Source of the DNA: Candidatus Latescibacterota bacterium
GTDB taxonomy: Bacteria > Latescibacterota > UBA2968 > UBA8231
DNA length: 64,000 nucleotides
Assembly (NCBI GenBank): GCA_965242865.1
Contig: CBDETK010000013.1
Span: 5,455,427-5,519,426 of the forward strand
Direction: 5' to 3'
Shown here: piece after piece, positions 7,057 to 31,654 of the stretch
Layout: each line of letters opens with the position of its first letter
How positions within the stretch are numbered: position 1 is the stretch's first letter
The notes under the pieces: generated by a model
What the model was told of the DNA's origin: nothing
Seen by the model: only the letters and a program-made list of their open reading frames with translations
The model's database searches: none
Position numbers and translations under genes: made by a program

Positions 7057-7058
7057 GG

Positions 7059-10428: not shown

Positions 10429-13173
10429 CTACGATCGCTCGACGCGCACCTGATCCTTCAGGTCGAGATCGTCGAGCACCTGCCGCAGCTCGGTTTCCAC
10501 GGTCTGGGCAAATTGCGCGGGGACGCGCACGGTGAATTCTATGCCGACGCAAAGGTCTTCTCCAGAGCGCAGCTTGGGCAGCAGTTTGGTTCCCAAGCGA
10601 TTCCAGACTTCGGGCGGCACAACGCCGGTGAGCCTAAGCGCGGTCTTTTGATTGGCTGGACTCGGGGCCGGGGCCGGCTGGGGTGGAGGCTCGGGGCGCG
10701 GCGCGGGTTCCGGTTCTGGCTGGGGCGCATCTTCAGGCGCGGCTTTGAGTGCTTGGGCCTTGGCTTTGGCTACCAAGAACACGTTCTCCTCAAACACCAC
10801 ATCCTCGGCAGCGACCGCCTCTTCATACCACAGCCGATTGAGGTTGGCGCCGGAGGCTAGGCCGAACTCTCCCCGCGCCACAAACTCAACGATCTTCTGA
10901 CGCAAGATCGCGTCGGGATCGATCAGCCGCGTCAACGCGCCGTTCAAAAAACTCTGGCGCAGGCTCGTCAGCGGCCACGCCCCCGCGTCTTTGAACGCGG
11001 CCGGCCAGTGGCGGTCGATGTAGCCGGCCCCCACGTTCTCGTTGAGCAGGGCCTCGGCTTTCAACGCACTGATGATCCGTCCGCAGAGGGTTTGGCTGGC
11101 ACTGGCGTGGCCGGCTCCGAGGTCGATGATCTTGAGCTGGTGCTCTTCTCGATTGTCCGCCAGCGCGACAAAGCGGTAGCCAGCCCATACCTCGTCCTTG
11201 GCCGCTTCCTCTGCGTCGCGAACGTGGGCCTGAAGCTCGGCGCGGTCCGCACGGTCGTATTCTGAGCCGAGGACGCCCTCGGCCACCTCGTGCGCGACGC
11301 GCTTCCAAGCGAGCCATAGCTCGACCTTGTCGCGCAGTTCGCGCCCCGGCTTCCGCGCACACCAGACCAACGAACCGCGGTACAGCCGGGGCGCGGTGCC
11401 CCGCTCCTGCGTCCAATCGCCAATGCGCTCGATCACTCGGTTGCCGCTGGGCCATTCCTCATCCGGGTCGAGGACGATGAGGGCCAAGCGCGGCGAATCC
11501 GGGACTGCGGTGCTGTCTTGGGGGAAGAAGCTCGTCGGCAGGGTCGCACCGCGGTTGAACTCTTCCTCGACCAGCTTGCGGATCGCCGGCTTGATCTCGG
11601 CGGTCTCGTCGAGCGACGCCCGCCGGTCGCTGACGACCTTGCGCAGGGTCGCTTGGTGGTGGATGCGGTAGCCGTCTGTGCCGACTTTGCGGATAAAGAA
11701 CCCCGACCCTTCGAGGGCGGTCGCCGCGCTGTCAATCGTCGTGGTTTCGACTTGGGGCTCCCCGAGCGCAAAGCGCAATTCCGGCAGATGGGCCACCTTA
11801 TCTACCTGCCCGCCAGAGGACTCAAACAGGATGGCCGTGCCCACGCGGCGGTGGATGTCGCGCAACGCGCCCGTGGCATCGGCATCGAGCGGTCTGGCCC
11901 GGGCCGTCAATCCCGCGAGGTCGGCGTCAATCGCCACGTCGAGCCGCGACTCGCCCAACTGGCCCAAGACCACAGCGCGGAACTCGGGCACATCCAACGG
12001 CGCCGCCCCCAGCGTAATCAGCGGCTCGGTGCGCGCCTTGGTAAATTGCTCGCGGGCGGCCCAAGAAATCCATTGCGCGAGCATGGCCAGCGCCCCGCGG
12101 GTTTGCTGGAACTGAGTGAGCGCGCGCCACTTGCGCTGAAAGACCGAAAGGGTGGCCGGATGAAAGGGATAGCACGCGGCAAATCGGCCCCGCAAAAACT
12201 CCTTGGCCTTGGCTTCGGTCGTCGCGGTATCGACCGCCAGCCACTCGGCCGGTAAGCGGGCAGTGCGTTCAAAGCACCAGTCCGCGTACGTCTTGGCGAC
12301 GCGCTTGCGAACGCGCTCGCTGCCGAGGTCCTCAAACAACCGCCGACGCACCACTTCGCTGATCTCGGATTCGTCGTTGGCAATTAGATCGCGGGCGACG
12401 CGGCGCACCACCTTGGTGATTCGGTCTTGCCACTGCTGATCCCAATCGGTCATTTCGACTTGGCTGCGCGGCAGGCTGATGACCGCGGCGGCCTGCGTGC
12501 TGCCGGTGACCGCGACGGTCAGGTTTTGTAGGAAGGCGTGGAAAGGCTCGGCTAGGTCGCGGTGGCGGTTGACGAAGTTCAGGACTTCATCGAACAACAG
12601 CAGCACGGGTGCGTCCGCCGCGGCGAATACGTTGGCGAGTGCCTCGGTGCCCGGTGGCGTGGTTTTTGCGGTCGCCCCGAGCGCGGCCACGCCCGTTTCG
12701 CCGGCCAGTTGGCGGGCTAGATCGATCCAAGGCGTCTCTCGGCCCTCTGCCGGGTCCCAAGCATTGCCGACGAAGACGCCGACGCGGGCGGGCGGAGCTT
12801 TGGCAAGCCCCGCCTCGTTTAGGAGGTCTGCCACCCCGAGGAACTGGGCGGCCTCTGCGCCGGCCTTGGCGATGTGATACAGGGAAGCGAGGGTATGGGT
12901 CTTGCCGCCGCCGAATTGGGTGACGAGCGTGAGGACCGGGGCTGTGTTCTCGGTCTTGCCGGAAAGTCGCCGGAGGACCATGCCGGCGTGTTCCTTTAGG
13001 GCGCGGGTGAAGCAGGTGCGCGAAAAAAATTGCGCGGGCTCGCGGTAATCGGCCGGAGCGGTTTGGGCGACGATTTGCTCTAGGGCGATGGCGAACTCGT
13101 CCGGGCTGAACGAGCGGCCTTCGCGCACTTCCCTGCGGAGCGTTACGATTTTGTACCAAGGGTCGAGGGCCAT
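10429..13173 (-). CDS. DUF499 (COG1483-type) AAA-like ATPase, normal partner of the DUF1156 methylase
   Basis: 914 aa. The N-terminus 'MALDPWYKIVTLRREVREGRS...FAIALEQIV' and Walker A 'QFGGGKTHTLASLYH' are characteristic of DUF499 proteins. A Pro-rich linker (PEPEPAPRPEPPPQPAPAPSP) precedes a small C-terminal domain. Confidence 0.82.
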   Translation of the reverse strand: MALDPWYKIVTLRREVREGRSFSPDEFAIALEQIVAQTAPADYREPAQFFSRTCFTRALKEHAGMVLRRLSGKTENTAPVLTLVTQFGGGKTHTLASLYHIAKAGAEAAQFLGVADLLNEAGLAKAPPARVGVFVGNAWDPAEGRETPWIDLARQLAGETGVAALGATAKTTPPGTEALANVFAAADAPVLLLFDEVLNFVNRHRDLAEPFHAFLQNLTVAVTGSTQAAAVISLPRSQVEMTDWDQQWQDRITKVVRRVARDLIANDESEISEVVRRRLFEDLGSERVRKRVAKTYADWCFERTARLPAEWLAVDTATTEAKAKEFLRGRFAACYPFHPATLSVFQRKWRALTQFQQTRGALAMLAQWISWAAREQFTKARTEPLITLGAAPLDVPEFRAVVLGQLGESRLDVAIDADLAGLTARARPLDADATGALRDIHRRVGTAILFESSGGQVDKVAHLPELRFALGEPQVETTTIDSAATALEGSGFFIRKVGTDGYRIHHQATLRKVVSDRRASLDETAEIKPAIRKLVEEEFNRGATLPTSFFPQDSTAVPDSPRLALIVLDPDEEWPSGNRVIERIGDWTQERGTAPRLYRGSLVWCARKPGRELRDKVELWLAWKRVAHEVAEGVLGSEYDRADRAELQAHVRDAEEAAKDEVWAGYRFVALADNREEHQLKIIDLGAGHASASQTLCGRIISALKAEALLNENVGAGYIDRHWPAAFKDAGAWPLTSLRQSFLNGALTRLIDPDAILRQKIVEFVARGEFGLASGANLNRLWYEEAVAAEDVVFEENVFLVAKAKAQALKAAPEDAPQPEPEPAPRPEPPPQPAPAPSPANQKTALRLTGVVPPEVWNRLGTKLLPKLRSGEDLCVGIEFTVRVPAQFAQTVETELRQVLDDLDLKDQVRVERS

Positions 13174-13301: not shown

Positions 13302-14546
13302 TTACTCATCAATGAGTCCGCGCAGTATCAGGCTTTCAAACATACCATCTTCCATCTGGCTGGCGAGTGCCGCCGCGATTTCTGTATCCTGAAACAGCGA
13401 GCCTGTAACATCGAAGGGGTCGATCACCGTCCCCTGATTCGCAAGGCGGACATTGAAGAGGCCAATATCGCTTGATTGTGTCTCGCGCTTCATCTTCATG
13501 ATTGCATCGACAAACAGTGGTGAATGCGTGGTGACAACAACTTGGCCTCGACGCTCCTCGACAACAGAGAACAGAAGCCGAGCGATCAGTTCGAGCCGGC
13601 GTGGATGAACGCCGTTTTCGGGTTCCTCCAGTGTTAGGAGAGAGCCGCCCCAAGGGTTCGCAGCGATGGTGCAGAGTGCGAGAACCCGCAGCGTTCCTTC
13701 AGATAAGATGCGAGAGGAATACTCTACGCCTGCCTGCTGGACCAACAGATCCAAGGTGCCGCGTCGCTCGTCTAGTTCGACGTTTAGCGTCTCAATGCTC
13801 GGTACGATTGAGCGCAATGTTCGCAGGACGGCAGCAAAATACTTGGGGTGCTCAGCTCGGAGCTTATATAAAAATGACGCGATGTACTCGCCGTGAATGC
13901 CAATATCCAACACGTCGGCCGGGGACTCCTCCGCCCGCATCTGCATCCGTGGCTCGAAATAGTACGTGCGCCAGTTCAGCAACTCTGAACGGACTTGCTC
14001 TAGCCAAGGGTATCCGTTGCCGCCCAAGCTCCGGTCAGACAGAATAGAGTGGTTCAAGCCGACCGGCTCCTGTCGCGGATGAGCCGGCTTGCCCTTGCGG
14101 CGGATGTGGAAGTTAGATCCCACGCGCTCAATGGCCGCGGCCCCCTTCGGGTTTCCGGCCGCACTGAGTTGAGCCAAATACTCGTCGGCAACGCTGAGTT
14201 GTCCCGATCTAAAATCTATTTCCGGCTCGACGCGATATCGATAACCTCCTTTCTCAGTAGCCAGATCGGCCTCCAGTGTAAACCGTGCAGATTGTTTCTG
14301 AAGCAAAGCGGGTAGTCCTTCCGCAGAAAAAGAGAATGCTTCAAAGGCATAACCGCGTACCGGAAACGATCCTCCGAGTGCGTCGAATAGCGTACGTGCG
14401 TTGCCCATCCACGAAAGAGCTTGGATGGCGTCCAGCAGATTGCTCTTGCCAACAGCATTAGGCCCAAAAAGGACCGCCAAACGGGGCAGGTCGACCGTGA
14501 CTTCGCTGAGCGACTTGAAGTTGCGGACGGTCAGTCTCTTGAGCAT
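13302..14546 (-). CDS. ABC/AAA_15-AAA_21-type ATPase (SMC-like head), full length
   Basis: The ATG at 14546 is preceded by AGGAGAG. 'LKRLTVRNFKSLSEVTV', Walker A 'GPNAVGKSN', signature-like 'LSEGTLRVLAL', Walker B 'LLTLEEPENGVHP' and D-loop/H 'VVTTHSP'. Confidence 0.8.
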   Translation of the reverse strand: MLKRLTVRNFKSLSEVTVDLPRLAVLFGPNAVGKSNLLDAIQALSWMGNARTLFDALGGSFPVRGYAFEAFSFSAEGLPALLQKQSARFTLEADLATEKGGYRYRVEPEIDFRSGQLSVADEYLAQLSAAGNPKGAAAIERVGSNFHIRRKGKPAHPRQEPVGLNHSILSDRSLGGNGYPWLEQVRSELLNWRTYYFEPRMQMRAEESPADVLDIGIHGEYIASFLYKLRAEHPKYFAAVLRTLRSIVPSIETLNVELDERRGTLDLLVQQAGVEYSSRILSEGTLRVLALCTIAANPWGGSLLTLEEPENGVHPRRLELIARLLFSVVEERRGQVVVTTHSPLFVDAIMKMKRETQSSDIGLFNVRLANQGTVIDPFDVTGSLFQDTEIAAALASQMEDGMFESLILRGLIDE

Positions 14547-14625
14547 TTGCGCTCTCCTATCGCGGTATCCCCCAGCGACTCCAATTTCGTTACCCAGCCA
14601 TTGAACCGAAGGCATTTAGCGCGAA

Positions 14626-15195
14626 TCACGGGCGTCCTCCGAGCAGGTTCTTCTGCCAGAGCTCGCCCGGTGTGAAGTTATCGTCGAGCCATACCTGATA
14701 GTCATCTGGGGATAGCTTGCGAACTTCAGTACGACCGTCCCGTAGCTCTAATACGAAAATCTCGTCGAGACCGAACGCATCAACCAGCAAGGGCGATTGT
14801 GTTGCCACAATGACCTGCCTGTCCTCGGCGAGGGACTTTATCATACCCCCGACCAAAGCGATAGCGGCCGAACGGTCGGGCTGAGCACGGGAAAGCATGA
14901 ACCGATAGTCGCCATAGCCCTCATCGATTCGCAATCTAACCTCGGCCTCTATGCGTGGCGTCCGTCGGCTGCCGCCATGTAATTGGTCATCGGCTCCTCC
15001 TTGGCTACCGATGAACTCGGCGAGCCTGCGATGCTCGAGCATCCAACTCAGCATTTCAAAGAAGCGAATGAAATTCGACTTGCCTGAGCCGTTGGCACCG
15101 ATTAGGACCGCCGCCTTGGGAATTCCCGCAAGCTCAACATCGGCCAACGACCGGAAGCCGCGGATGCGGACGGATTCGATCATTGTTGAGTCCAT
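14626..15195 (-). CDS. short ABC-type ATPase paralog lacking the central region (Walker A and C-terminal H-loop only); possibly a decayed gene
   Basis: From the ATG at 15195: 'MIESVRIRGFRSLADVEL', Walker A 'GANGSGKSN' and 'LSWML', then directly 'VIVATQSPLLVD...GELWQKNLLGGRP'. At about 189 aa it has no ABC signature or Walker B segment, compared with 414 aa for its downstream neighbour. Confidence 0.55.
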   Translation of the reverse strand: MDSTMIESVRIRGFRSLADVELAGIPKAAVLIGANGSGKSNFIRFFEMLSWMLEHRRLAEFIGSQGGADDQLHGGSRRTPRIEAEVRLRIDEGYGDYRFMLSRAQPDRSAAIALVGGMIKSLAEDRQVIVATQSPLLVDAFGLDEIFVLELRDGRTEVRKLSPDDYQVWLDDNFTPGELWQKNLLGGRP

Positions 15196-15205
15196 TTCGT
15201 TCCTT

Positions 15206-15238
15206 TCACCTCGGTGCCGCCAAGAGCATGGCGTCGAT
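15206..15238 (-). repeat. relic D of the DUF1156 methylase 3' end
   Basis: The minus strand reads ATCGACGCCATGCTCTTGGCGGCACCGAGGTGA (IDAMLLAAPR*). The genuine methylase end is CTCGACGCCATGCTGCTGGCGGTGCCGAGGTGA (LDAMLLAVPR*). That is 5 mismatches in 33 nt by manual alignment. The relic lies 10 nt upstream of the ATG at 15195. Confidence 0.7.
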
Positions 15239-15242
15239 GTAG

Positions 15243-15719
15243 TTATTTCTGGCATAGATCTCGTCGTCCAAGTAGTCTCTTGTGGGTAGGCGTGAAACGC
15301 TGGTTCGTACGTGTGGTGTAGATCTTGCCTCGTGGTCGGTTTATCAGATCCCTGTTCTTGAAATCCTCGCCTAGTCTCTTCTCTCTTTCACTGCTCTCAT
15401 TAGTAAACAATAGACGCGCTCCACTGATTTGGGCTAAGGCGATGATGTGCGAATCGTCTGAAACGCATTTACCCTTGATCGCCTCTGCTTTAGCGTTGAC
15501 CTGATCTTCGTTCATGGTCCTCATTTTGCCCGCTTCTCCTAACGTACTCGCCCATTCTCTAAATGTTGGCGAACCGTCTTTAAGTTCTTCAAGTAGCTTG
15601 CCGCCGACTATCAAGCGTTCTGATCCTGCGTTGATCCAATCATAGAATTTCTCGCCTGCCTCAGATTGACTGGGACCGAAAACTTCATTGGCTACATTCG
15701 CATCAACAATTGCACACAT
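15243..15719 (-). CDS. PIN-like (DUF4411-like) putative nuclease
   Basis: 158 aa. 'CAIVDANVANEVF' is a first-strand Asp, and 'VSDDSHIIALAQISGARLLFTNES' is a PIN-like D...hhA.A...hhT.E pattern. It starts 4 nt after the upstream ATPase stop. Confidence 0.5.
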   Translation of the reverse strand: MCAIVDANVANEVFGPSQSEAGEKFYDWINAGSERLIVGGKLLEELKDGSPTFREWASTLGEAGKMRTMNEDQVNAKAEAIKGKCVSDDSHIIALAQISGARLLFTNESSEREKRLGEDFKNRDLINRPRGKIYTTRTNQRFTPTHKRLLGRRDLCQK

Positions 15720-15722
15720 GGC

Positions 15723-17081
15723 TCAACTCCTTTCAGCCTTTCGTCTCTTCCAAATAGACCGTTCCATTTCATTGATGAAGAACTGCCGATATACCGGAGG
15801 GGCATTCAGGACGTTTCCCTCGGCGTCTATTTCTAGTGAATGAATATGTACGTCGAGGTCGCGTCGCTCGAAGAAGAGAATGGAAACGTCTTCGGGTTTC
15901 AGGTTCCCCTCGCTGTCGCGAACGTCCATGCGCACCCGGCTGAGCAGGTGATCGCTATGCGTCTCAATCACCAATTGACGCTCCGGCCCGGCAATTTGGC
16001 AGAATAGACTGCCCAGAGCGGCTTGGGCACTGGGATGGAGATGTACTTCCGGTTGCTGGAGCAGAAAAATGGACGGGGCGTCTGAACGCAGTAACTCGGT
16101 GACGACAGGGAGCACTTGGCTCACTCCATAACCTACGTCAATCAAGTTGCGTTGCGGCCCCTTAACCCTTTTCCCGTATTTTCGGATCTGCACCTGAAAA
16201 GGCTCGGTCTCCTTCTTGTCGAAAGACTTGACCGAGATTTCGTCAAAAAGGCCGGCGTCTTGACCAAATTTTTCGAGCGCGTCCTTGAGGGTTTCCCATT
16301 GCTTTTTATGCTGGAAATACAAATTGGACAGGTACATGGGAATGTAGTCGCCTTCGGGGTCCTGTGTCGGGAGTGCGGGGTCGTAGGTACGACGTGGCTT
16401 GGAGCGAACAGGTGCGCTGGCATACGGTTCGGATGCGTGAAAGAGAAAACGGCCTGATTGGCTAGCGTATATAACCTCTTTGATTTTTTTTAAGTCCGCT
16501 TTTGTAGGAGCCGCTGCACCTGCTAGTGCGTTCCATTGATGATTTTCTTCGAGCGTTTCTGTAAAATGCCAAATAAGCGACAAAAGAGAAAGTCGATCGT
16601 CCCGACTCCAATCCAGAAAGTGGACGGCCTCATCAGATAGATGATGCTTCCAAGCCCCCCTTTTTGTCCCGAAGCAAACCTCCCTTTGCGAGAGACGATA
16701 TTCGATCCACGTATCCTTTTGAGAAAGGCGTCTGCGCTCCGGCACCGGGACGCTTCCCTTCTTTTTGAAGATCGCTTCAAAATGGAACGGTTCTGTGTCG
16801 CTACGTATCTGAGTAGTGAATGCAAATCCCGCCTCAAAAGCATCTGCTCGACCACCCCGTCCTCGGTAATGGGCGATCTCGTCGAAGCTGCCGAGGTCGT
16901 AAGGCTCTTTCTTAAAATCGGGGTTTTTCTGCCGGTAGGCGACATCCCAGAGTGCCCGGATCAGGGCCATGAACGAGGTCTTGCCGGTGCTGTTCTCCCC
17001 GACAAGTAGCGTCAGTGGTGCTAAACGGGCGGTCTGTTTTTCGCGGAAGCAGCGAAAGTTTTTGATCGTGATTTGGTCCAT
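15723..17081 (-). CDS. AAA_21/DUF3696-like ABC-type ATPase
   Basis: 452 aa. 'ITIKNFRCF', Walker A 'GENSTGKTS', 'VGYGVSQVLPVV' (remembered as a DUF3696-type signature), Walker B 'IFLLQQPEVHLHP' and 'VIETHSDHLL'. Confidence 0.82.
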   Translation of the reverse strand: MDQITIKNFRCFREKQTARLAPLTLLVGENSTGKTSFMALIRALWDVAYRQKNPDFKKEPYDLGSFDEIAHYRGRGGRADAFEAGFAFTTQIRSDTEPFHFEAIFKKKGSVPVPERRRLSQKDTWIEYRLSQREVCFGTKRGAWKHHLSDEAVHFLDWSRDDRLSLLSLIWHFTETLEENHQWNALAGAAAPTKADLKKIKEVIYASQSGRFLFHASEPYASAPVRSKPRRTYDPALPTQDPEGDYIPMYLSNLYFQHKKQWETLKDALEKFGQDAGLFDEISVKSFDKKETEPFQVQIRKYGKRVKGPQRNLIDVGYGVSQVLPVVTELLRSDAPSIFLLQQPEVHLHPSAQAALGSLFCQIAGPERQLVIETHSDHLLSRVRMDVRDSEGNLKPEDVSILFFERRDLDVHIHSLEIDAEGNVLNAPPVYRQFFINEMERSIWKRRKAERS

Positions 17082-17102
17082 GCGATTCCCTTTTTTGTGC
17101 TT

Positions 17103-17235
17103 TTAGCGCGGCACCGCTAGTAGGAGGCGTTTTTCGTTGCAGCCTTGAGGATAGGGGGCGGATAGGGCGTTGGCAAGGCGGAGGAAGTCCTCGGCACAAA
17201 TCAGCGTCCGCAGCCTCTAAGGCGATGGCGGATGA
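17103..17235 (-). pseudogene. relic B of the DUF1156 methylase 3' end (about 130 nt, decayed)
   Basis: The minus strand reads ..DFLRLANALSAPYPQGCNEKRLLLAVPR* against the genuine ..DFLRLANALSALYPQGCNEKRLLDAMLLAVPR*. A 68-nt core has 3 mismatches and includes a 34-nt identical run. There are in-frame deletions and an upstream in-frame TAG. The relic lies 21 nt upstream of the ATG at 17081. Confidence 0.85.
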
Positions 17236-17277
17236 GAGATGCGGATACGACCGCCGCACACCGATCTACTAGGAATC

Positions 17278-17529
17278 TCACGAATCCGCAATCGATACAG
17301 CGGCCAGTGTATCTTTGGCAATAATGGCATGCGCGTAGGCCGTGCAGGCGCGAATGTCGTCTGGTTCCAGTTCGGGGTAATCCGCTAGAATGGCCTTTGT
17401 CGTCACGCCCTGTGCCATCAGGCTCAGGATGAGTTCCACTGAAATTCGCATGTCGCGAATGATGGGCTTGCCGCCAAAGACTTCCGGGCGGGCGGTGATG
17501 CGCTTGAGCAGTTCGGGATTAGGGATCAT
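17278..17529 (-). CDS. DUF433 (COG2442) antitoxin-like protein
   Basis: 83 aa. 'ITARPEVFGGKPIIRDMRISVELILSLMAQGVTTKAILADYPELEPDDIRAC' is the typical DUF433 pattern. Confidence 0.85.
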   Translation of the reverse strand: MIPNPELLKRITARPEVFGGKPIIRDMRISVELILSLMAQGVTTKAILADYPELEPDDIRACTAYAHAIIAKDTLAAVSIADS

Positions 17530-17553
17530 GTCCTCTCCGTAGATTACGTCCGG

Positions 17554-17602
17554 CTACCTCGGCACCGCCAGCAGCATGGCGTCGAGTGAGGCGTTTTTTT
17601 CG
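17554..17602 (-). repeat. relic C of the DUF1156 methylase 3' end
   Basis: 17556-17586 is identical (31 nt) to 18865-18895. The minus strand reads ..SLDAMLLAVPR* with a TAG stop. The relic lies 24 nt upstream of the DUF433 ATG at 17529. Confidence 0.85.
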
Positions 17603-17615
17603 GAACCAATAGGAG

Positions 17616-17843
17616 TCATCGGTTCTGCGTGATGAGCCGACTTCTGCTTTCCTCGCGTGGCTTTGAGGGCGGCTTGGTTTCAAAGGGATTACTTACCCGA
17701 CTGCCGCTATCTTCCCACACTCCCAATTCTTCGAGTTCTCGGCGCATTTGTAGCGCCTCTTCGACGATCTTAGGATCAACCGCCGGATTCTTTGCGATCT
17801 GCTCTTTGGTGAGCATGGGCACAAGTAGGTCTTTTTTTAGCAT
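17616..17843 (-). CDS. small hypothetical protein (75 aa) downstream of the protease
   Basis: ORF starting 11 nt after the protease stop, with similarly lowered GC. Charged and helical-looking, with no motif. Confidence 0.4.
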   Translation of the reverse strand: MLKKDLLVPMLTKEQIAKNPAVDPKIVEEALQMRRELEELGVWEDSGSRVSNPFETKPPSKPREESRSRLITQNR

Positions 17844-17854
17844 AGAGACTCCTT

Positions 17855-18748
17855 TTAGGGGAAATAACGGTTATGGACTAGACTATTTGCTTCTTCCTTG
17901 AATGCAAGATCTCCGAAAAACCAGAAGTATTCCTTGATCAAGTTGCTCAACGTAGGATCGGCTTCTAAGTCATCAATTTTGAGCTTCAATTCAGCAAGAA
18001 CATCTCGGTTAATTCCACGTCCATGAGTACCCCATCTTTTTTGATCGTTAAGTGCTTGGGCGATTTCTTCCGCACGTTTCTCCTTTTCTTTTTGAGTAAC
18101 AGGTTTCTTTGTAGAACCGTGTGTTGACCAATCCTTGAATTTGTACTTTACAAGCCAATGTTGAATGAGTCGAACTGATAGCTCGGCTGCCAATTCATAT
18201 TGACGCAAATCAGCAGCATCAAGTTTCTGAAGCAGCACCAAATCCGCACTTGTCAGGGTGCCTTCTTCGGCTTTTTTGACAAAGCGTTCGTACTGTTCAA
18301 GATAAGAAAGAACCGATATAGGGATGGGTTTGTCTTCTATATACAATTGGGGATCAACCGGCCCCAAACAAGAGAAGTAGTCCATCAAAATTGCGTCCCC
18401 GGACATCACGAGCACCGTCCCTGCCGACATCGCCTTATCGGGAATGAGAAACTTCACCTCTTTGTAGTAATGCCTGAGCGTGGTAACAATGCGTTCGGCG
18501 ACCTCGACAATGCCACCAGTTGTATCAATGATCACGAGCGAACCTTCGCGGCGTTCCGGGACCCTTTCGATAGCCAACCTGACGCGGTGATCGACCGACT
18601 CCATGATTGGACCGAAAATTGTCAGCGCATCCATACAGGTATGCTTCTCAATTTCAGCGAGCTTGGAATTAAGCCACTCGACCGCGATTGAATCGCTCGT
18701 ATCTGGATTCTTTTGTGGGACCGGCTGCGCGGTGATGTCATCGGCCAT
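17855..18748 (-). CDS. SDH-family (serine dehydrogenase proteinase) ClpP/SppA-fold serine protease
   Basis: 297 aa. 'IIDTTGGIVEVAERIVTTLRHYYKEVKFLIPDKAMSAGTVLVMSGDAILMDYFSCLGPVDPQL' matches the family core with its nucleophile Ser in 'AMSAGT'. A hand count of one 60-nt line (18001) gives 27/60 G+C. Confidence 0.78.
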   Translation of the reverse strand: MADDITAQPVPQKNPDTSDSIAVEWLNSKLAEIEKHTCMDALTIFGPIMESVDHRVRLAIERVPERREGSLVIIDTTGGIVEVAERIVTTLRHYYKEVKFLIPDKAMSAGTVLVMSGDAILMDYFSCLGPVDPQLYIEDKPIPISVLSYLEQYERFVKKAEEGTLTSADLVLLQKLDAADLRQYELAAELSVRLIQHWLVKYKFKDWSTHGSTKKPVTQKEKEKRAEEIAQALNDQKRWGTHGRGINRDVLAELKLKIDDLEADPTLSNLIKEYFWFFGDLAFKEEANSLVHNRYFP

Positions 18749-18862
18749 GGAGTGAACTCCTGCTCTCGGGGATTCGATTCATGTTGTCTCTGCGTATGCT
18801 TCGATTTTTAGAGTACTTAACCAGAATTTTTGCTTTGCGTCAACCTTTTGCTGAATCACGCG

Positions 18863-21774
18863 TCACCTCGGCACCGCCAGCAGCATGGCGTCGAGGAGGC
18901 GTTTTTCGTTACAGCCTTGAGGGTAGAGGGCGGATAGGGCGTTGGCAAGGCGGAGGAAGTCGGGGCCGCGATCTTGCTCGGCGCTGATTAGCGTCCGTAG
19001 GGCGGTGGCGTGGCCGGTGGATTGGAGCAGCATGGCGGTGTGGACGCGGTCGAGGGTGGTGTCGCCAAGCGTGGCGGAAAGGGGGTCGTCGGAGGATTCG
19101 CCGTATTGTGGGCGCGGCTCCCGGACGAGCGTGGGGGTGCTGTCCTGCTGGTCGGGGAAGAGCGTCTGCTGGGCGTCGGCTCCGCTTTCGATGTACGTGG
19201 CTGCGGCGGCCGCGCCGTCTTCGCCGAAGAGCTTTTGGGCGCGCTCGGCTACGGAGAGGAGGCGCACGACGCCCTTTTCTTGGCCGATGATGCGGTCGGT
19301 TTGGGCGGCGAGGTCAATGCCCATGGGCTGGGCGAAGCGGCGCACGACATCGAAGGGGAGCGCGAATCCCGTGGCCGCGGCTTGGGCGACGGCTTCTTCG
19401 TCGGCCTCGTCGGCTTGGTCCTGATTTTCTGCAACAGGGGCCGTGCTCTGGAGCGTCCACAGGAAGAGCGCGGTTAGGCGGGCGTCCGCTTCCAATGCGC
19501 CGTGCGTTTGCGCCTCGGCCGTGCCGAGCACCTGTTGCAGGGCGGCGCGACCGACGACTTCCCAGACTTTTTCCAAGTAATCGGGCAGGCCGATTAGATC
19601 GCCTTCGGCGGTTTCGACAGCGCGGTAGCGGCTGAAAATTTCGAGGGCCGGGCCGATGCAGGCGAAAACCAGATCGGCCCCGCGGATGCCTTCGGCTTGC
19701 AAGCGGTCGATCCAGTCGGCGACGCGGACCGGCAGTTCGCGCAGGACATCGGCCCAATCGCCGATGGGGGCGTCGTCGGGACGGGGGCGGCAGATGAGGT
19801 GGACGCTGGTGGCGAGGGCAGCGGAATCGCGGGCGCGGAGACGGGTCGCGCTTTCGGTAGCAATCGGCCACGATCCGGTTATGGTCCAACCGCCGCGAAT
19901 CATGCCCGAGAGCAACGCTTCCCAGCCTTCCGTTGTTTTATGAGCGAAGACGACCGAGCCGATGCCTTCTTCGCTCAGTACGCGGCGACCTTCGGCAAAG
20001 GCTTTCGCCATCGTCTCCTCGAACCATGCGCGGTCTTTTGGGCGGCCGTCGGCCTGCTTGGTCTCGTCTTGTACGGCCTCGGCGGTCTTGGGCGAGAGCA
20101 GGTTGTCAGGATCGAAGGGATCGCGCAGTAGCGGATTGTTGGGTAGCGTACGTTTGAGCCAGACGAGGAAGAAGTCGGAGAGATCGGAATAGGGAATCGC
20201 GTCGTAGTACGGCGGGTCTGTGAAATAGACGCTGGTGGCTTGGTCGGGGAGTGGGTGGTCGGTGGCGTCGGCGGATTGAAGTTGGCCTGAAACTGCAGAT
20301 CGGGCGAATTGTATGACTTCACAAGTTGCACCTATACCTGATAGGAAAACCCCCCGCGCATTGCTCTTTGGTGTAGATTCACAGAAATCCCACACAATGG
20401 GAATGGCTTGACGTGCAAAGAGATTTACAGGGTTTTCAGCATTGCTTTCCCACCGAGTAAGGGAGTTGTTGCCATCCGCCATTCTGCCTAAAAGCAATGC
20501 GATTAGGGTTTGTTGAATGCTTGGCGTGAGCGTTACGCTAGATCGGCCCAACCCAACCAACGCCACCTTCTGCCGCGCCGTAAACAAATCCCCCCACTGC
20601 ATCATACCATATCGCTGCACACGAAAGCCCAACGTGCCGATTGGTGGCAACGGCTCATCCGGCACCGGGCAAAGCCCCTGCCGCCCACCCCGCTCCCACT
20701 CGTCCAACATCCGCGCCACCCGCTCCTGCGCCACCCGCACCGCCGCATAATCCGCCCCGTCTCGCCGGGCCGCACCGTCACCACCGCCGTCATCCGCGCC
20801 CCACCCGTCCGCCTTCCCTCCGCGTCAAAAACCACATCCGCGCCGCCCCGTTGGGCCGCAAGCTGCGCCCGCACCCGCTCCGGCGGCAGCACCGCGCCGC
20901 AGCACAAACAAGTCGCTCGCGCTCGCGCCACCGTGCCGCCGCGCACCTCTCGATCCGCCTGCGGCTCAACCACCGCAAACTCGACGCTCGGCGGCTCCCC
21001 CTCGCAACGCTCAACCCGATGCTGCAACGCCCGCTTGCGCTTGGCCTTCTTGCACAACCAAAACGAGCGCATCAGGGGAATCTCCGCGCCGCAGTTGGGC
21101 GCTTCGCAGCGCACCGTGCGCGCCCACAAGTAGGCAATCGGCGTGGCCCCATCCGGGTCCCTCGGATACAGCTCGGCCAATTCCCGCTCGGCCTGCCGCT
21201 TAATTTCGCCGCCGACCCGACGCAACTCCTCGGCCAGCCCCGGCCCGTGCCGCGGAATATCCTCCAGCATCACCTTGAGAATCAGACACGCCACCGGATT
21301 TAGGTCGCTGGCAAACGCCTCGCAACCCAGCCGCAACGCCTCCAGCGGAATCGACCCGCCGCCGGCAAACGGATCCACCACCAGCGGCGGCTCCGCGCCA
21401 TGCGCCGCTTGCACCAACGCCCGGCTCACGTCGAGATGGGTGCGGTCCGCCGCATTCTTCCAATTGGCAAAGTTGGCAATGAACGCCAGTAACCCCTGCC
21501 GCAGCTCCAAGTCATTCGCCAGCGGCTGCCGCACCGCGAGCAGAATGTTCCGCGCTTGCCGCTTAAAGTCCTCCGGACAGTGCGCGTCGCACGGGTCTGG
21601 CAGCAGCAACGCCAGCAACACCGCCCGCGACGAGGCCAACGGCCGCCGCGCCCACCACAAGTGCAACGTACTCGGATGCCCATGCCGAATCGACTTCTCC
21701 CGCGCCGCGTACTGAGAAACCTCAGCAATGGGAAAATCAACTTCGGCGAGACGTTTGCAGACGCGGGGGATCAT
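18863..21774 (-). pseudogene. DUF1156 (COG1743-type) Zn-ribbon DNA methyltransferase, interrupted by a 1-nt frameshift near 20752
   Basis: N-terminal ORF 20602..21774: 'EVDFPIAEVSQYAAREKSIRHGHPSTLHLWWARRP', the SAM-binding 'DPFAGGGSIPLEA' and Cys pairs 'CEAPNCG'/'CLCCG'. C-terminal ORF 18863..20740: 'FTDPPYYDAIPYSDLSDFF' (DPPY catalytic motif). The frames join as ..RPGETGR/DYAAVRVAQE.. only if one nucleotide is added in GGGGCGGATT. Confidence 0.85.
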
Positions 21775-21855: not shown

Positions 21856-22065
21856 TTATCCGCGCTCCAGTTCGGCCGGATGCATGCTGAGATATTCACG
21901 AACCTCCAACTGCATTCGGTCGATCTCGGCGAGAAATCCCGCCACCGAGCCTCGGTAATTTTCAGGATGGGTTTCCACATTGCGTAGATGGGCTATTTGA
22001 CGCTGGAAATGCGCGATTCGCCCCAGAGTGACGTCGAGTTCGCGATCGTTTGCAATCATGGTCAT
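21856..22065 (-). CDS. small helical protein (69 aa) coupled to the upstream NTase
   Basis: Its ATG overlaps the NTase stop (ATGA at 22062-22065). Predicted helical, with no motif. Confidence 0.45.
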   Translation of the reverse strand: MTMIANDRELDVTLGRIAHFQRQIAHLRNVETHPENYRGSVAGFLAEIDRMQLEVREYLSMHPAELERG

Positions 22066-22502
22066 TCCCCCGTGATTTCAACGATGCCACGTTCAGTACC
22101 ATCGCGTTTGAGTTGCCAATCTTCGATGGCGGATTCTTCGCCACCGATGGCCGCCAAGCGGCGAACCCAGAACACACTACATCCAAAATGATCTTGGGCC
22201 GTTCCGTGATAGAACAGGAGTCGGGCTTCGCCGACTAGTGACCCCATATCGAAATTGTCATCCATAATCATGAAGATGTCCACATCGTTGGGTTCGTATT
22301 TTTCAGTAATAAACGAGCCGAATACGATGAATCGAGCTAGATAGCCAGTTTGCGCCGCGATCTGATAGATGCGTTCGAGGCGCATGGCAAGCAGCTTTCG
22401 GCGATGCGATCCCGTTCCAAAACGGCTGACTGTTTCGGCGAGCGAAGCCGTATAGACGCCAAAAGGAAGATCACCCATTGCGGTAAAGTCAGGTAGGGGC
22501 AT
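22062..22502 (-). CDS. minimal nucleotidyltransferase-fold protein (pol-beta superfamily)
   Basis: 146 aa. 'FIVFGSFITEKYEPNDVDIFMIMD' is the GS...DxD NTase motif. Confidence 0.65.
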   Translation of the reverse strand: MPLPDFTAMGDLPFGVYTASLAETVSRFGTGSHRRKLLAMRLERIYQIAAQTGYLARFIVFGSFITEKYEPNDVDIFMIMDDNFDMGSLVGEARLLFYHGTAQDHFGCSVFWVRRLAAIGGEESAIEDWQLKRDGTERGIVEITGE

Positions 22503-22642
22503 AGACCCTCCTGTTGATGAGAACCATTCTAATGAGACAGTCGGTTAGATCGTGCATCCCCGCGGCCAGCCCATTCCATCTTTCATCCCCCAAGGCCGTC
22601 GCTATACAGATTCCACGAAGATAAACAGTATTATTAGTTTAA

Positions 22643-25600
22643 TCACTCAGTTCCTGATTTTTGAACAATAAATGCTTTCATACCACCTGCATAGAATTGA
22701 ATTTGAACTTTATGACTTGACGATATACTAGTATCTATCATTGAATTTCTTTTTTTTAAGAAAAGAGGTATCTTATACTGAAGATCTATAATACGCACGT
22801 ATAATCTTTTTTTATATTTGACTATAACAGCATCAAATATCTCAGGATTACCTTCATCATCTTTCCAATAATCTTGCATACATAAGCTAGTTCTAAAACG
22901 TTGCTGAATTTTTCTCATGTGTCTCCTAAAATAAGAGAATTTTCTGTTATATGCTTCTGCGATACCCAAAAAGTAATGATATCTCATAGGGTCTTGTTCA
23001 AGTATAGGCCCATTAGAGCGAACTAAATCAAATAACTTAGATCGGCTGGCACTATGGTGTAAGTTACGCCCATAGTGCTGGAACAATAGCTTTGATACTT
23101 CATCTAAGTGAGTATATTTTTCAAGTTCACGCACCTTTGCACCTAAAGCATCCTCATCATTTTTCTGGGAGTAATAATAGAAGTATAAAATTAGGGCGTA
23201 TGGCTTTAAATCTTCTTTTTTATACAAGTCACTTATAAAATTGATATATTTTTCATCATTAGCAGAAGAAGAATGATGCTTTTTTCTATATCTGGCTTCT
23301 ATTTCGGCAATGGTTTCAATCCCTTCATGAAGCTGTCTTTTCGCTCGATCTAATAAATCTTCAATCGAAATTATACTACGCAATTCTGTTTCTTGGGTAA
23401 GAGAAAATGTTTCTAAATACCATATCTCAAACCGTAAGTATTCTCGGAAACTGTATATACTAAAGGGATCTTCTATCATTTTTATATAAAATAATTCCCT
23501 CGCTTCGTCAATATAAGGTTGTACTGCACTATGTATAACTTGCTCACGATCTAGCAACTGGGCTAGTTTAAAATTGAGAACTGCTCGTCGATGTGTTAAT
23601 CTGTGACTTCTTCGATATAAGAAACTTTCTGCATATATGATACGTTCGATGCCACGTTCTAAAGATTTCTGAGTTCCTCGGTATTGTAAATTTGTAGCGT
23701 AGTGAAGGTTGAAATGAGGATCATCAGAAAATTCATTTGCACATATATCATATAGATTATCAATCTTAGATTGTGTAAATTCTTCTGCCGTTATCATTGC
23801 TTTTAGTATATCTACAATTAAACGGGAATTATGAGGAGTATAAGTTAATTTTTTAAATATTTTTTGGTATTCCACAAATCTTTTATCTGAATCACTTAGA
23901 TACATCTCTATAAGTAAGTCTGAAATTACCGGATGACGAGTTCGAAAATATAGGTCGGGTTCATCTCCCGATATATTTTTTTCTTCTTGGACCAAAATTC
24001 CTTTTGCATCGTATTCTATGACGTCACGTTTGAATGTACCCCAATCTTTAGACACCAGTTTCATCAATAAACTGGAAGGCATTAAAATTTTGAATCTATA
24101 TAATAATGATGTATATAGAAATGACTCCTTAGCCTTTTCTGATAGTTGTTCATATGCGCTCCGTAATATCTGGTCATGATGTCCATCTGTAACTATGGAT
24201 AGCAGAGACACAAAAGCATCTCCTTTATAATCTCGAACAACCGTAGAGGCGAGAGAGTTTCTTTCTTTTTCATCTCTGACAGTGATAATCTTTGAGTCAT
24301 CTAATTTCTTAATCAGATCTGATGCTTCTTTTTTGTTAAAATTAGTATTGATCTCCAGTTGATGCAGGTTGGGATATGATCGGTTATGGGTTAATTTTTG
24401 TAGGATATTTTCCCTTATGGGAACCAGCATCACTATATTAGATCCAGAGAGTTGTTGTATGCTGAGATTCGACCGCAATTCAATCATTGATTTAAAGAAA
24501 CTGTCTACCTCACATTCATCAAATAGAAGCATGATATTTTCAGTGTCAACAGCACTGATTAGTTCACATAAATCTACTTCTCTAATATCTTGAGGCTCTA
24601 ATATCTCAAATACTGCTACATCTAAGTCAGAGTCAAGAATACTATGGACTAATCTATAGCAGAAAGTCGTTTTGCCGACACCATAGGATCCAGTTATTGC
24701 AATAATAGGAATTACAAATTCTTCAGAATTGAAAAATTGTTCTAATTTATTGATTATCTCTTTTTGACAATCTAATCTTATTACATCATAATTCTGCTTT
24801 ATCGCAAAATAAGATGGTCTTTCTCCCGTATAAAATTGCTCTGGTGAAATGTATTCAAATCTGGTATGTGGATTAATCTGGACAAGACTGCTTCCAAGCC
24901 TCTTAATAAGCCTATTAGATATATTTATGGGAGAACTGTCTTTTTGGCGAAACTGCGGTTTTCGCCTTCTTATAGCTGATTCTTCACTCGATTTTTCCCA
25001 ATCTTCATATTTTTGATAGAATTCAGAAGCAGTGCATTTTATAATTCTAATACTGCTGCTCTCAAGGTATGGTAGCATATCTTCCTGTATGGTGGGATCT
25101 ACCAATAGTATATCTCTCTTATTTCGGTAATTATATCGATCAAAACGATCAAGAAGAAATTTAGCAAACGGATCTCTAAATGAGTATCCAATCACGAGAA
25201 GTTGAATACGGGGCGAGATGTGTTCTAGGGCCTGTAACACTATCTTGTAAAAACCGTTAACGGATTCAAAATCTCTTGTTGAAAAAATGAATGGATATTT
25301 GGCTCTATCACTAATACAACCATTTAGCTTAATGTATTTTATCTCATCGTTTGCTGGATTGTAATGATATTCATGCAAATTTTTTGCAGGCTTCAGGATT
25401 TTATTTTCGTCCGATGTACTAAATACTCTATCAAAAGCCTTCTCAACTATAATATCCAAATTGGTCGTAATGATCTCTTTCCAAGGTAGGCGAGCAATTG
25501 TAGTATGAAATGCAGTGGGTTCTAGATTTCTAAGACATTTTTCTACTATATCATCAAACTCTTTGCGATCAAATTGAGGATTTCGACTAAGCACATCAAC

Positions 25601-25807
25601 ATATTCAATAATACTGTCGGTTTGATAACTATTTCCAGACTTTGCTTTGTGATAACCCATTAATTGACTACTTAGATACACATTATCATCGGTTATAGAA
25701 GCACCTGCGCCTAAGAACAGAATCGTATTACCCGATATGATATTAGGAAATATGTCTCTTCGTAAAGTTTCACTTCCTTTTTCTTGGACATCTGTTATAT
25801 GGTACAT
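22643..25807 (-). CDS. SIR2-like (SIR2_2) domain fused to a P-loop STAND-type NTPase and a long helical C-terminal region
   Basis: 1054 aa. N-terminus: 'ILFLGAGAS', 'ITTNLDIIVEKAF', 'IKLNGC' and 'VIGYSFRDP' (SIR2_2 pattern). Middle: Walker A 'ITGSYGVGKTT' and Walker B 'IMLLFDECEV'. Very AT-rich: line 22681 is 19/60 G+C, against 47/60 for line 20761 in the methylase. Confidence 0.82.
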   Translation of the reverse strand: MYHITDVQEKGSETLRRDIFPNIISGNTILFLGAGASITDDNVYLSSQLMGYHKAKSGNSYQTDSIIEYVDVLSRNPQFDRKEFDDIVEKCLRNLEPTAFHTTIARLPWKEIITTNLDIIVEKAFDRVFSTSDENKILKPAKNLHEYHYNPANDEIKYIKLNGCISDRAKYPFIFSTRDFESVNGFYKIVLQALEHISPRIQLLVIGYSFRDPFAKFLLDRFDRYNYRNKRDILLVDPTIQEDMLPYLESSSIRIIKCTASEFYQKYEDWEKSSEESAIRRRKPQFRQKDSSPINISNRLIKRLGSSLVQINPHTRFEYISPEQFYTGERPSYFAIKQNYDVIRLDCQKEIINKLEQFFNSEEFVIPIIAITGSYGVGKTTFCYRLVHSILDSDLDVAVFEILEPQDIREVDLCELISAVDTENIMLLFDECEVDSFFKSMIELRSNLSIQQLSGSNIVMLVPIRENILQKLTHNRSYPNLHQLEINTNFNKKEASDLIKKLDDSKIITVRDEKERNSLASTVVRDYKGDAFVSLLSIVTDGHHDQILRSAYEQLSEKAKESFLYTSLLYRFKILMPSSLLMKLVSKDWGTFKRDVIEYDAKGILVQEEKNISGDEPDLYFRTRHPVISDLLIEMYLSDSDKRFVEYQKIFKKLTYTPHNSRLIVDILKAMITAEEFTQSKIDNLYDICANEFSDDPHFNLHYATNLQYRGTQKSLERGIERIIYAESFLYRRSHRLTHRRAVLNFKLAQLLDREQVIHSAVQPYIDEARELFYIKMIEDPFSIYSFREYLRFEIWYLETFSLTQETELRSIISIEDLLDRAKRQLHEGIETIAEIEARYRKKHHSSSANDEKYINFISDLYKKEDLKPYALILYFYYYSQKNDEDALGAKVRELEKYTHLDEVSKLLFQHYGRNLHHSASRSKLFDLVRSNGPILEQDPMRYHYFLGIAEAYNRKFSYFRRHMRKIQQRFRTSLCMQDYWKDDEGNPEIFDAVIVKYKKRLYVRIIDLQYKIPLFLKKRNSMIDTSISSSHKVQIQFYAGGMKAFIVQKSGTE

Positions 25808-31644: not shown

Positions 31645-31654
31645 TTTGGCCCTC

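Follow-up and report, generated by a model that had tools for sequence, protein, structure and literature searches.

Here we describe three truncated copies of the 3′ end of a methylase gene, hmaB, in a 64-kilobase (kb) stretch of the genome of Candidatus Latescibacterota bacterium (contig CBDETK010000013.1; this whole stretch of DNA is called the window below), together with the cargo genes that stand behind them. The locus reads as a decayed Hma system (Helicase-Methylase-ATPase, related to BREX) whose junctions between genes are packed with defence cassettes, and the three copies, which we call relics B, C and D, lie between hmaB and the ATPase gene hmaC, each just in front of a different cargo gene. 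Compared with related loci, each relic appears to be a former hmaB end still joined to the cassette it once preceded, and we think it probable that the relics are recombination scars, left when DNA was added to the locus through one homologous crossover in an hma gene and one non-homologous joint. That Hma systems carry foreign genes is known: under the name ‘guilt-by-embedding’, embedded genes were reported in 62.7% of 1,485 Hma systems (Payne, Hughes, Fineran, Jackson, bioRxiv 2024, 10.1101/2024.01.29.577857). Nested defence genes of this kind have served the discovery of new immune systems, and their route of entry, with few mobility genes, was left open. The stubs described here are a footprint at the level of the sequence that points to ordinary recombination with a single homologous anchor in the conserved gene ends of the host system.

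Results

Three relics of the hmaB 3′ end

The gene hmaB encodes a DUF1156 N6-adenine methylase and occupies 18863..21774 of the window, on the minus strand like hmaC and the relics. Its stop codon lies at 18863-18865, and its genuine end reads DFLRLANALSALYPQGCNEKRLLDAMLLAVPR before a TGA stop. The relic sequence derives from the last ~135 nucleotides (nt) of the gene (18863-19000). When the 3′-terminal 240 nt of hmaB together with the following 60 nt were compared by blastn with the whole window, the search returned the query and exactly three significant matches, all on the minus strand and all between hmaB and the DUF499 gene hmaC; the other matches were chance words of 11-15 nt (E >= 0.015), and a separate repeat finder recovered identical repeat families.

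Relic B (17103..17240) preserves ~135 nt from the 3′ end of an earlier hmaB, with a TAA stop. Its core at 17122-17189 is identical to hmaB in 65 of 68 positions (E 5e-27, blastn), an in-frame TAG lies upstream of the core, and two deletions, of 15 nt and 12 nt, are both in frame; the translation runs from a proline through the internal stop to RLRTLICAEDFLRLANALSAPYPQGCNEKRLLLAVPR and the final stop. Given the TAG and the deletions, relic B is a decaying fragment and not coding sequence. Relic C (17554..17598), the stub nearest hmaB, consists of 43 nt from the very end of an earlier hmaB, up to a TAG stop, and translates as EKNASLDAMLLAVPR plus stop; at 17556-17598 it is identical in 42 of 43 positions with one 1-nt gap (E 2e-14), and a perfect run of 31 nt lies inside. 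Relic D (15206..15238), the stub nearest hmaC, keeps the last ~32 nt of a former hmaB including a TGA stop, translates as IDAMLLAAPR plus stop and is identical in 28 of 32 positions at 15206-15237 (E 8e-6 by blastn, 4e-3 by blastn-short).

Behind each relic, a short step leads from its stop codon to the start of another gene: 24 nt from relic C to a DUF433 gene (ATG 17529), 21 nt from relic B to an AAA_15/DUF3696 ATPase gene (ATG 17081) and 10 nt from relic D to a short ATPase gene (ATG 15195). Identity to the present hmaB end drops with distance from it, from 98% in relic C to 96% plus insertions and deletions in relic B and 88% in relic D. An earlier reading of this DNA (the original prediction) had announced three 3′-end copies of a DUF1156 methylase gene on one strand, each 10-24 nt in front of a different gene. 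The copies are there with E values of 5e-27, 2e-14 and 8e-6 to 4e-3, the gaps of 24, 21 and 10 nt agree, the translations and stop codons are exactly as it gave them, and the comparison of the hmaB 3′ end with the whole window, for which it had proposed 13000-22000 against itself, leaves the relics as the sole significant repeats of that end. It had also asked how well relics B and D resemble that end: relic B does so beyond doubt (E 5e-27), and relic D, marginal by itself, is backed by contiguous alignments of 371-373 nt to relatives.

A repetitive extragenic palindromic (REP) element, a miniature inverted-repeat transposable element (MITE) or another dispersed repeat was rejected as the source of the repeated sequence. 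The 64 kb hold no further copies, and across 83 loci the motif is confined to hmaB ends and hmaB-hmaC spacers, always on the plus strand, so the generic REP-like element that the original prediction had named as its possible undoing is not what the relics are.

Orthologous junctions in related loci

For comparison we used 80 further hmaB loci, one genome per species, each with 10-kb flanks and numbered with an L below. They span Latescibacterota, Gamma- and Alphaproteobacteria, Chloroflexota, Nitrospirales, Acidobacteriota, Gemmatimonadota, Rhodothermales and one metagenome-assembled genome (MAG) of Halobacteria. The proteins of the nearest hmaB homologs are 83-85% identical to HmaB of the window, and their loci are laid out as hmaA-cargo-hmaB-cargo-hmaC. 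Over all loci the spacer from the hmaB stop to the hmaC start ranges from ~3 nt to ~7.0 kb. Each locus has one match to a degenerate DAMLLA pattern at the hmaB end, and in five the pattern recurs downstream on the same strand.

Every junction between a stub and its cargo in the window has an ortholog in one of these relatives. Relic D and the short ATPase gene behind it align contiguously with the intact hmaB end of L001 and the ATPase gene that follows it (84.6% over 371 nt), and also with a 138-nt stub and ATPase gene of L005 (88.5% over 373 nt). In L003 and L005 the genuine hmaB end and the DUF433 gene behind it run collinear with relic C and DUF433 of the window (85.7% over 350 nt), and relic C shares with those ends a TAG stop, a downstream CCGGACG and an extra A, none of which is present at the current end of the window’s hmaB. 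Relic B shares its 5′ boundary and a 7-nt insertion, CTTAGAG, with a 135-nt stub in L003 that likewise lies before an AAA_15 ATPase gene; given the common boundary and insertion, the two stem from one event, and the window copy has decayed further. At the genuine end, hmaB and the protease cassette next to it match L080 at 85.9% of nt over 1414 nt, and the proteases are 92.9% identical in amino acids (aa). The hmaB genes of the window and L080 match at 76-78% of nt, and at 69% of aa over the C-terminal 625 aa (tblastn). In L080 the protease cassette lies between two hmaB stubs, 123 nt long before it and 146 nt long after it, and the second of these has its stop mutated to TGG. More generally, varied cargo sits directly behind the intact hmaB stop in relatives, the point on which the original prediction had proposed a survey of public loci: the types of cargo found in the window lie 10-89 nt after intact hmaB in some relative, with the exception of a 75-aa open reading frame (ORF) of the protease cassette, which is seen only in L080, and the protease itself is represented behind intact hmaB only by a 43%-identical homolog. 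These junctions uphold the serial accretion, by recombination within the methylase gene, that the original prediction had put forward.

A single genome could instead have produced the relics by itself, through slippage, unequal crossing-over or tandem duplication; the cargo would have been replaced later, and no hmaB would have been imported. The relics are, after all, direct repeats at short distances on one strand, the resident end matches relics B and C at 96-98% identity, and a second hmaB copy that could serve as partner exists in some genomes (L021, L054, and L027/L028 in one MAG). Such an origin does not explain why every stub is fused to a different cassette at a junction with an orthologous, genuine hmaB-cassette counterpart in another genome, nor why relic C carries the TAG, CCGGACG and extra A of an L003/L005-type allele instead of the window’s TGA end. 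Relic D, too, is nearer to the hmaB end of L080 (30 of 32 identical) than to that of its own locus (28 of 32), the window and L080 are far more alike in the protease cassette than in hmaB, and cargo and hma genes differ sharply in guanine-cytosine (GC) content. We therefore regard a purely local origin as unlikely.

The original prediction had gone one step further and taken the relics for the ends of diverged orthologous methylase genes, to be placed in a phylogeny. This reading is only weakly resolvable from such short sequences. Against 80 hmaB ends the stubs proved too short for placement, each being about equally near several relatives and its own locus, and the phylogeny gave hints only: relic D leans slightly towards L080, and relic C shares its allele-specific characters with L003 and L005.

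Stubs upstream of hmaB

A mirror image of the 3′ relics lies on the other side of the gene. Here 128 nt starting from the ATG of an hmaB gene are found at 26075..26202 (minus strand), interrupted by an in-frame TAG and 88% identical to 21647-21774, with E 2e-40 to the start of the window’s hmaB and 4e-43 to that of L020. This 5′ stub sits after a HEPN gene and before a SIR2-STAND cassette, and the stop of the upstream HEPN gene overlaps the ATG of the stub (ATGA, 26199-26202), so that the HEPN ORF ends 4 nt into the stub. In all, the window holds three 3′ stubs of hmaB, one 5′ stub of hmaB and one stub of the helicase gene hmaA. The original prediction lacked the hmaB 5′ stub (26075-26202), the hmaA 3′ stub and the frameshift in hmaB that is described below.

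Terminal stubs across Hma loci

To count such remnants, the terminal 210 nt of each gene were used as queries in 82 non-redundant loci (1.6 Mb), and matches with E < 1e-6 outside the source gene were recorded. Ectopic copies came from the ends that face the internal junctions: the hmaB 5′ end was found in 24 places (16 loci), the hmaB 3′ end in 11 (8 loci), the hmaA 3′ end in 7 (7 loci) and the hmaC 5′ end in 3 (3 loci). The outward-facing hmaC 3′ end was found in 1 place in 1 locus, and each of 17 internal control segments in 0-6 places, in 0-3 loci. Nearly all matches to internal segments lay in loci with a second large piece or a whole copy of the gene (L021, L054, L047, L017 and L043); the others were a few short ones in L012, L023, L032, L044, L061 and L075. 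The idea of a cargo hotspot at the junction between methylase and DUF499 gene, part of the original prediction, was already published (Payne et al. 2024), and it is not specific to that junction, since all four junction-facing ends are involved.

The stubs follow simple rules. Their orientation is that of the gene strand in every case, and their outer end is always the native junction, while the inner end lies anywhere from 26 to more than 210 nt inside and may extend to a whole second hmaB (L021). Where both flanking genes could be delimited, 3′ stubs were present in 8 of the 38 loci with an hmaB-hmaC spacer above 1 kb and in none of the 37 with a shorter one, and 5′ stubs in 10 of the 46 loci with an hmaA-hmaB spacer above 1 kb as against none of 16. 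A few more terminal copies lie outside the hma genes or where hmaA could not be delimited (L001, L021, L034, L044, L054, L080 and the window).

A similar picture could come from an integrase supplied in trans that used the last or first ~30 nt of hmaB as its attachment (att) site; the cassettes would then be small integrative elements and the stubs att repeats. Insertion by an integrase can give tandem accretion with direct repeats of a gene 3′ end. The extent of the stubs would suit it, as every 3′ stub has the last ~30 nt and every 5′ stub begins at or near the ATG, and the terminal 31 nt of hmaB hold a weak imperfect dyad (CGCCA-N6-TGGCG); the extreme terminus would, however, be trivially included if a stub is resident DNA joined to its old neighbour. 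Stub length is continuous, from 26 nt to the whole gene, and not fixed, four unrelated termini leave stubs (hmaB 5′, hmaB 3′, hmaA 3′ and hmaC 5′), and the stubs that follow the same protease cassette in the window and in L080 differ in length and in spacer sequence. As the original prediction had supposed when it called the process one that needs no integrase, Pfam found no integrase, transposase or Xer-type domain in the scanned ORFs of 69 aa or more that lie from hmaC up to the 5′ stub of hmaB (a scan that leaves aside the MNT halves and smaller ORFs), and neither Pfam nor PADLOC matched an integrase or recombinase in the ORFs scanned over ~7.9-36 kb. In Hma systems at large, just 3.1% of embedded genes are mobility-associated (Payne et al. 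2024). Site-specific integration is, in our judgement, very unlikely. An integron-like att core bounding every cassette was rejected as well: the boundaries are stubs of arbitrary length from three genes, and most cassettes have none.

A further possibility is that the stubs are kept because they function, whether as leaders for translational coupling, as small ORFs or as stretches of regulatory RNA, and that the cassettes need them for expression. This would fit stop codons that are kept 10-24 nt before the next start or overlap it, the two in-frame deletions of relic B, the ATGA overlaps kept in many 5′ stubs, and the co-orientation of 96.7% of embedded genes with the host system, which hints at co-expression (Payne et al. 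2024). It fits poorly with the in-frame TAG in relic B and in the 5′ stub, the loss of the stop in the second L080 stub, the arbitrary lengths and the decay of identity with position, and most cassettes in most loci do without a stub. An Rfam scan of 13000-27000 gave no match, promoter-like sites were not in excess (2 found against 3.7 expected), and terminator-like sites were in modest surplus only (13 against 7.2 ± 3.5). We consider functional retention highly improbable, and, as it concerns retention alone, it would leave the recombinational origin of the stubs in place. Two antisense terminator-like hairpins lie inside stub sequence.

The overlaps themselves deserve a remark. At least 14 of the 24 hmaB 5′ stubs share an ATGA stop/start overlap with the ORF upstream. 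They occur in L001, L003, L005, L015, L021, L026, L035, L042, L054, L071, L080 and the window, and the upstream genes (HEPN, Schlafen/HATPase_c_4, hmaA and others), although unrelated, all stop overlapping the hmaB ATG. Random joints do not explain junctions of such exactness; old junctions may have been spread by recombination, or the overlap may have been selected for translational coupling.

Some loci hold larger or displaced remnants. In L021 a complete, second and diverged hmaB lies between hmaB and cargo (10996-14071), preceded by a 100-nt hmaA 3′ stub, and L054 has further pieces of hmaB ~7-10 kb downstream (19427-21962); both look like the long-stub extreme of the same process. Downstream of hmaC in L001, 17861-19327 comprises a 41-nt hmaA 3′ stub, a Schlafen gene and a ~90-nt hmaB 5′ stub, and is a fossil hmaA-Schlafen-hmaB junction outside the present system. 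In L047, segments of hmaC flank the locus as inverted copies that are 99-100% identical (6778-7930 and 17366-18518) and hmaC appears interrupted, possibly through a recent rearrangement or a problem of assembly.

How the stubs may have formed

The pattern to be explained is a complete gene end beside the newest cassette, truncated copies fused to older cassettes, truncation of variable extent, a single orientation and no recombinase found. In the account that we consider probable, the donor DNA would come from another Hma locus and consist of a piece of hmaB with a different cassette beside it. A first, homologous crossover would fall inside hmaB, and a second, non-homologous joint would fall within the resident gene’s own copy of that terminus, tens to hundreds of nt in from its end. 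The incoming DNA would thereby supply a complete new gene end and a new cassette, and the old end of the resident gene would be left as a promoterless, decaying stub fused to the cassette formerly behind it. Repeated events would stack the cassettes, the newest beside hmaB and the older ones toward hmaC, and a mirror process at the hmaB 5′ end would stack them toward hmaA. Homology-facilitated illegitimate recombination of a linear fragment and Campbell-type insertion of a circularised fragment would have the same outcome and are inseparable here; either would presumably depend on RecA, and the direction of each event is likewise our reconstruction. The stubs, being direct repeats, could probably act in turn as secondary homologous anchors for gain or deletion of cassettes, and two-sided homologous replacement, which leaves no scar, presumably lies behind much of the remaining turnover.

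Several features of hmaB are compatible with its role as the homologous arm. An intact hmaB adjoins each newest cassette, and its alleles are mosaic. The gene is demonstrably recombinogenic: in an alignment of the window with L001-L003, L005-L007, L012, L020 and L080, the central part of hmaB (columns ~1200-2000) falls into two allele groups that are 45-60% identical, between flanks that are 85-91% identical. We suspect that this swapped part is the target-recognition region, exchanged by recombination, on the strength of the description of BR methylases in PMC12839542 and of general knowledge. HmaB is best conserved in its 45 N-terminal and 45 C-terminal residues (terminal aa identity of 0.87 and 0.81 as against 0.68), and the termini thus offer the best homology between diverged loci.

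A number of observations weigh against this account, or narrow it. Identity at four-fold sites is not raised at the hmaB termini (0.47 and 0.44 against 0.43 overall), so there is no signal of a family-wide homogenisation of the termini by frequent exchange, and the idea that cassette traffic keeps them similar across the family was dropped as unsupported. The joints are read through relatives in place of the true donors, short of nucleotide resolution; at the joint of relic C, the donor-like sequence (L080) and the recipient-like sequence (L005) share just an A-run of 3-4 nt, a ‘microhomology’ that rests on proxies 14-20% diverged. For the protease-cassette event, a search of the 3′ third of the window’s hmaB for a mosaic breakpoint gave no clear switch of nearest relative and found the central allele swap alone. 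As short stubs carry no phylogenetic resolution, the equation of each stub with a former resident allele is indirect. Two relatives complicate the order of events. The single stub of L005 is collinear with relic B on its left flank and with relic D on its right, which means that the AAA_15-PIN cassette either entered a stub or was lost through deletion between two of them, and that addition next to hmaB is not the sole process; either of the B and D events may have come first, and recombination between stubs may also add or remove cassettes. L003 has an hmaC-5′-like fragment where the window has relic D, so some junctions that seem to be held in common are independent events. Finally, stubs (E < 1e-6) occur in about one fifth of the loci with a spacer above 1 kb, and most turnover is therefore scarless or takes another route. 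We still find the additive account probable, and the conclusion of the original prediction is supported as essentially right.

The Hma locus and its decay

A 2026 study names Hma as a DUF499-centred, BREX-related type-1 system. In the window, hmaC (10429..13173, minus strand) is an intact ORF of 914 aa that forms the distal wall of the cargo interval; it lies downstream of hmaB on the same strand, matches the PADLOC HmaC model (E 1.6e-93) and Pfam DUF499, and is collinear with hmaC of L001, L002, L003 and L005 at 78-87% nt identity (blastn). HmaB was recognised by Pfam DUF1156 (E 2.3e-23) and by PADLOC HmaB (E 2.8e-54 for the N-terminal half and 3.3e-61 for the C-terminal half). Relative to L001, L002 and L005, hmaB has a 25-nt deletion near 20752-20755, whose frameshift splits the gene into two ORFs and which removes the region of the consensus motif GRHYRLPT; given this deletion, hmaB is present but probably inactive, a pseudogene. 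Of hmaA, which encodes a SNF2/DEAD/NOV_C helicase, the window has a 3′ stub of ~205 nt (31696..31900, minus strand) detected by tblastn and blastn. It is 81-88% identical in nt to the hmaA 3′ ends of L001, L002, L003 and L005, and tblastn with HmaA of L002 over 8000-36000 matched residues 1066-1133 and nothing else; with HmaA reduced to this stub, the Hma system is degraded and not complete.

About 5.7 kb of other genes separates hmaB from hmaC, with seven ORFs in that interval and further ones upstream of hmaB, all on the minus strand. The cargo between hmaB and hmaC has a GC content of 41-58% as against 62-72% in hmaB and hmaC, and over all cargo the range is 33-58%.

Cargo between hmaB and hmaC

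The newest cassette is the one that adjoins hmaB, a protease cassette at 17616..18748 (minus strand, like all cargo here) with a ClpP-like SDH-type serine protease gene at 17855-18748 (Pfam SDH_protease, E 1.4e-16) and the 75-aa ORF at 17616-17843; its GC content is 41-53%. The protease module also occurs outside the Hma context: a search of metagenomes retrieved only homologs that are 40-50% identical, none of them near hma genes. Behind relic C lies a probable antitoxin gene (17278..17529; Pfam DUF433, E 3.8e-22), whose protein is 89-90% identical in aa to the DUF433 proteins encoded after intact hmaB in L003 and L005. Its DUF5615 partner is gone from the window (17257-17277) and present in L003 (Pfam), and L005 has a 290-nt interval of the right size for it. 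In L003 an insertion sequence (DDE_Tnp_1) has entered the DUF433/DUF5615 cassette.

Relic B is followed by an ABC ATPase gene (15723..17081) that matches Pfam AAA_15, AAA_21 and DUF3696 as well as PADLOC NsnB and HEC-03B, and whose type lies directly after intact hmaB in L010, L022 and L036. Its partner in what resembles an HEC-03 cassette is a PIN-like protein of 158 aa (15243..15719; weak Pfam PIN match, E 4.6e-3), and the pair is also found in L003, L018, L022, L026, L036, L042 and L061. The short ABC ATPase gene behind relic D (14626..15195) is of HEC-01A type with an internal deletion of ~540 nt, and is a probable pseudogene: residues 21-128 and 132-207 align to positions 1-102 and 314-390 of the PADLOC HEC-01A profile, and the two halves align to 12948-13318 and 13861-14109 of L001. 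Next to it, 62 nt at 14570..14631 form a DUF4276 remnant, 80.6% identical to L003 18261-18322, the end of the L003 DUF4276 gene; the remainder of this partner gene was undetected in the window. The last cargo gene before hmaC (13302..14615) encodes another HEC-01A-like ABC ATPase (Pfam AAA_21; PADLOC HEC-01A, E 5e-50), to which homologs align only from residue 22-25 on, mostly 24, and whose type lies directly after intact hmaB in L007, L057 and L017.

Cargo upstream of hmaB

Upstream of hmaB, 21856..25807 (minus strand) holds a SIR2-STAND NTPase gene (22643-25807), a DUF6932 nucleotidyltransferase gene (22062-22502) and an ORF of 69 aa (21856-22065), with Pfam matches to SIR2_2, nSTAND_NTPase5 and DUF6932. 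The SIR2-STAND gene has ~33% GC within a region of 55-70% GC, and its cassette is 87% identical in nt to L003 6204-9681 in the same position, a foreign cassette common to two genomes.

Beyond the 5′ stub lie two tandem matches to the MNT-HEPN (nucleotidyltransferase/HEPN) pair of L003, 26170-26894 with 90% and 26967-27651 with 77% nt identity, and Pfam confirmed the HEPN ORF of the first of these regions only. Two MNT/HEPN units are likewise present in L001, where a truncated ORF of 38 aa takes the HEPN position of the second, and a short hmaB 5′ stub follows each unit. Downstream of the hmaA stub are a Ppl-like PHP-ATPase gene (28933-31731) and the second of two Schlafen paralogs (27689-28924). 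In the place of hmaA stand a Drt4-type defence reverse transcriptase gene (32096-33646; PADLOC E 1.8e-152) and a Schlafen/AlbA_2 gene (33692-34930).

Discussion

The stubs make the acquisition of cassettes visible after the event, and their arrangement is consistent with a relative chronology of acquisitions. The same cassettes, far less diverged than the Hma loci that carry them, have moved between these loci, and ectopic copies of junction-facing termini offer a searchable signature by which the flow of cassettes could be dated or traced in any locus with embedded defence genes. We see the footprint and the mechanism it implies as a useful, testable addition and not as a new category of system. 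A wider proposal, which we offer tentatively and with less than even confidence, is that Hma loci are integrase-free platforms for gene capture, in which the termini of hmaB, hmaA and hmaC serve as portable homology arms for cassettes across phyla, insertions are additive, and stubs become landing pads or deletion points. If this were true, Hma junctions would be a RecA-driven functional analogue of the integron cassette array with a readable stratigraphy of acquisition, and the same scars may mark cargo embedding in general, in BREX, DISARM and type I restriction-modification systems alike.

Comparison with known systems

The closest parallel in mechanism is homology-facilitated illegitimate recombination, known from natural transformation of Acinetobacter and Streptococcus pneumoniae, in which one homologous anchor is combined with a joint at microhomology. 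The likeness lies in the single homologous arm, the illegitimate other end, the variable joints and the want of a dedicated recombinase. That process is known from transformation in the laboratory, whereas here it would be read from natural footprints that recur at the same gene ends across phyla; unlike the laboratory cases, whole defence cassettes are added, and microhomology at the joints is at most hinted at here.

Islands borne by integrases at the 3′ ends of tRNA and protein genes offer a second parallel: a replacement 3′ end arrives with the island, displaced partial copies stay behind, and their stacking order records the history. The Hma loci differ in that no integrase was found, the length of the repeat is not fixed, and 5′ ends and three different genes are affected. 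In Neisseria, the minimal mobile elements are cassettes between conserved flanking genes that are swapped by homologous recombination and need no integrase. These are two-sided replacements without duplicated gene ends, whereas the events in Hma would be additive and leave stubs. The term minimal mobile elements appears in passages of PMC3787668 and PMC1797815.

Among mobile elements, the hotspots of P4 satellites and P2 phages come nearest. Their pseudogenes are mostly very small and intergenic, about half lie in defence-associated loci, and 24% of those in P4 resemble core genes (typically Ash), which was read as the remnants of intense defence-swapping recombination (Nucleic Acids Research 2026, PMC13586616). 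Those hotspots lie inside integrase-bearing mobile elements, and the remnants, taken from PseudoFinder, were not treated as ordered terminal stubs; swapping is the explanation preferred there, and stacking is how we read the stubs in Hma.

The system and phenomenon treated here are those of the Hma-embedded genes catalogued by Payne et al. (2024), and HEC-01A and HEC-03B models match cargo in the window. In that catalogue embedded genes are almost always co-oriented, ABC-ATPase cassettes are the commonest, and many of these are paired with TOPRIM, NERD or PIN genes (HEC-01, -02 and -03). The reason for embedding and its route ‘remains to be explored’, in the words of that paper, which cites only the idea of a ‘genomic sink’; the words recombination, remnant and hotspot are absent from its text, loci with pseudogenes were filtered out, and terminal stubs, a census of them and a recombination model form no part of it. 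In the openly accessible literature on illegitimate recombination and defence embedding we found no paper describing these stubs, the P4 and P2 remnants being the nearest. The embedding of cargo in Hma, integration by one-sided homology and integrase-free exchange between conserved flanks are thus already known; what appears to be new, relative to the openly accessible texts, are the ordered stub scars in Hma, their presence at all internal junction-facing termini and across phyla, and the layer-by-layer reconstruction that they permit.

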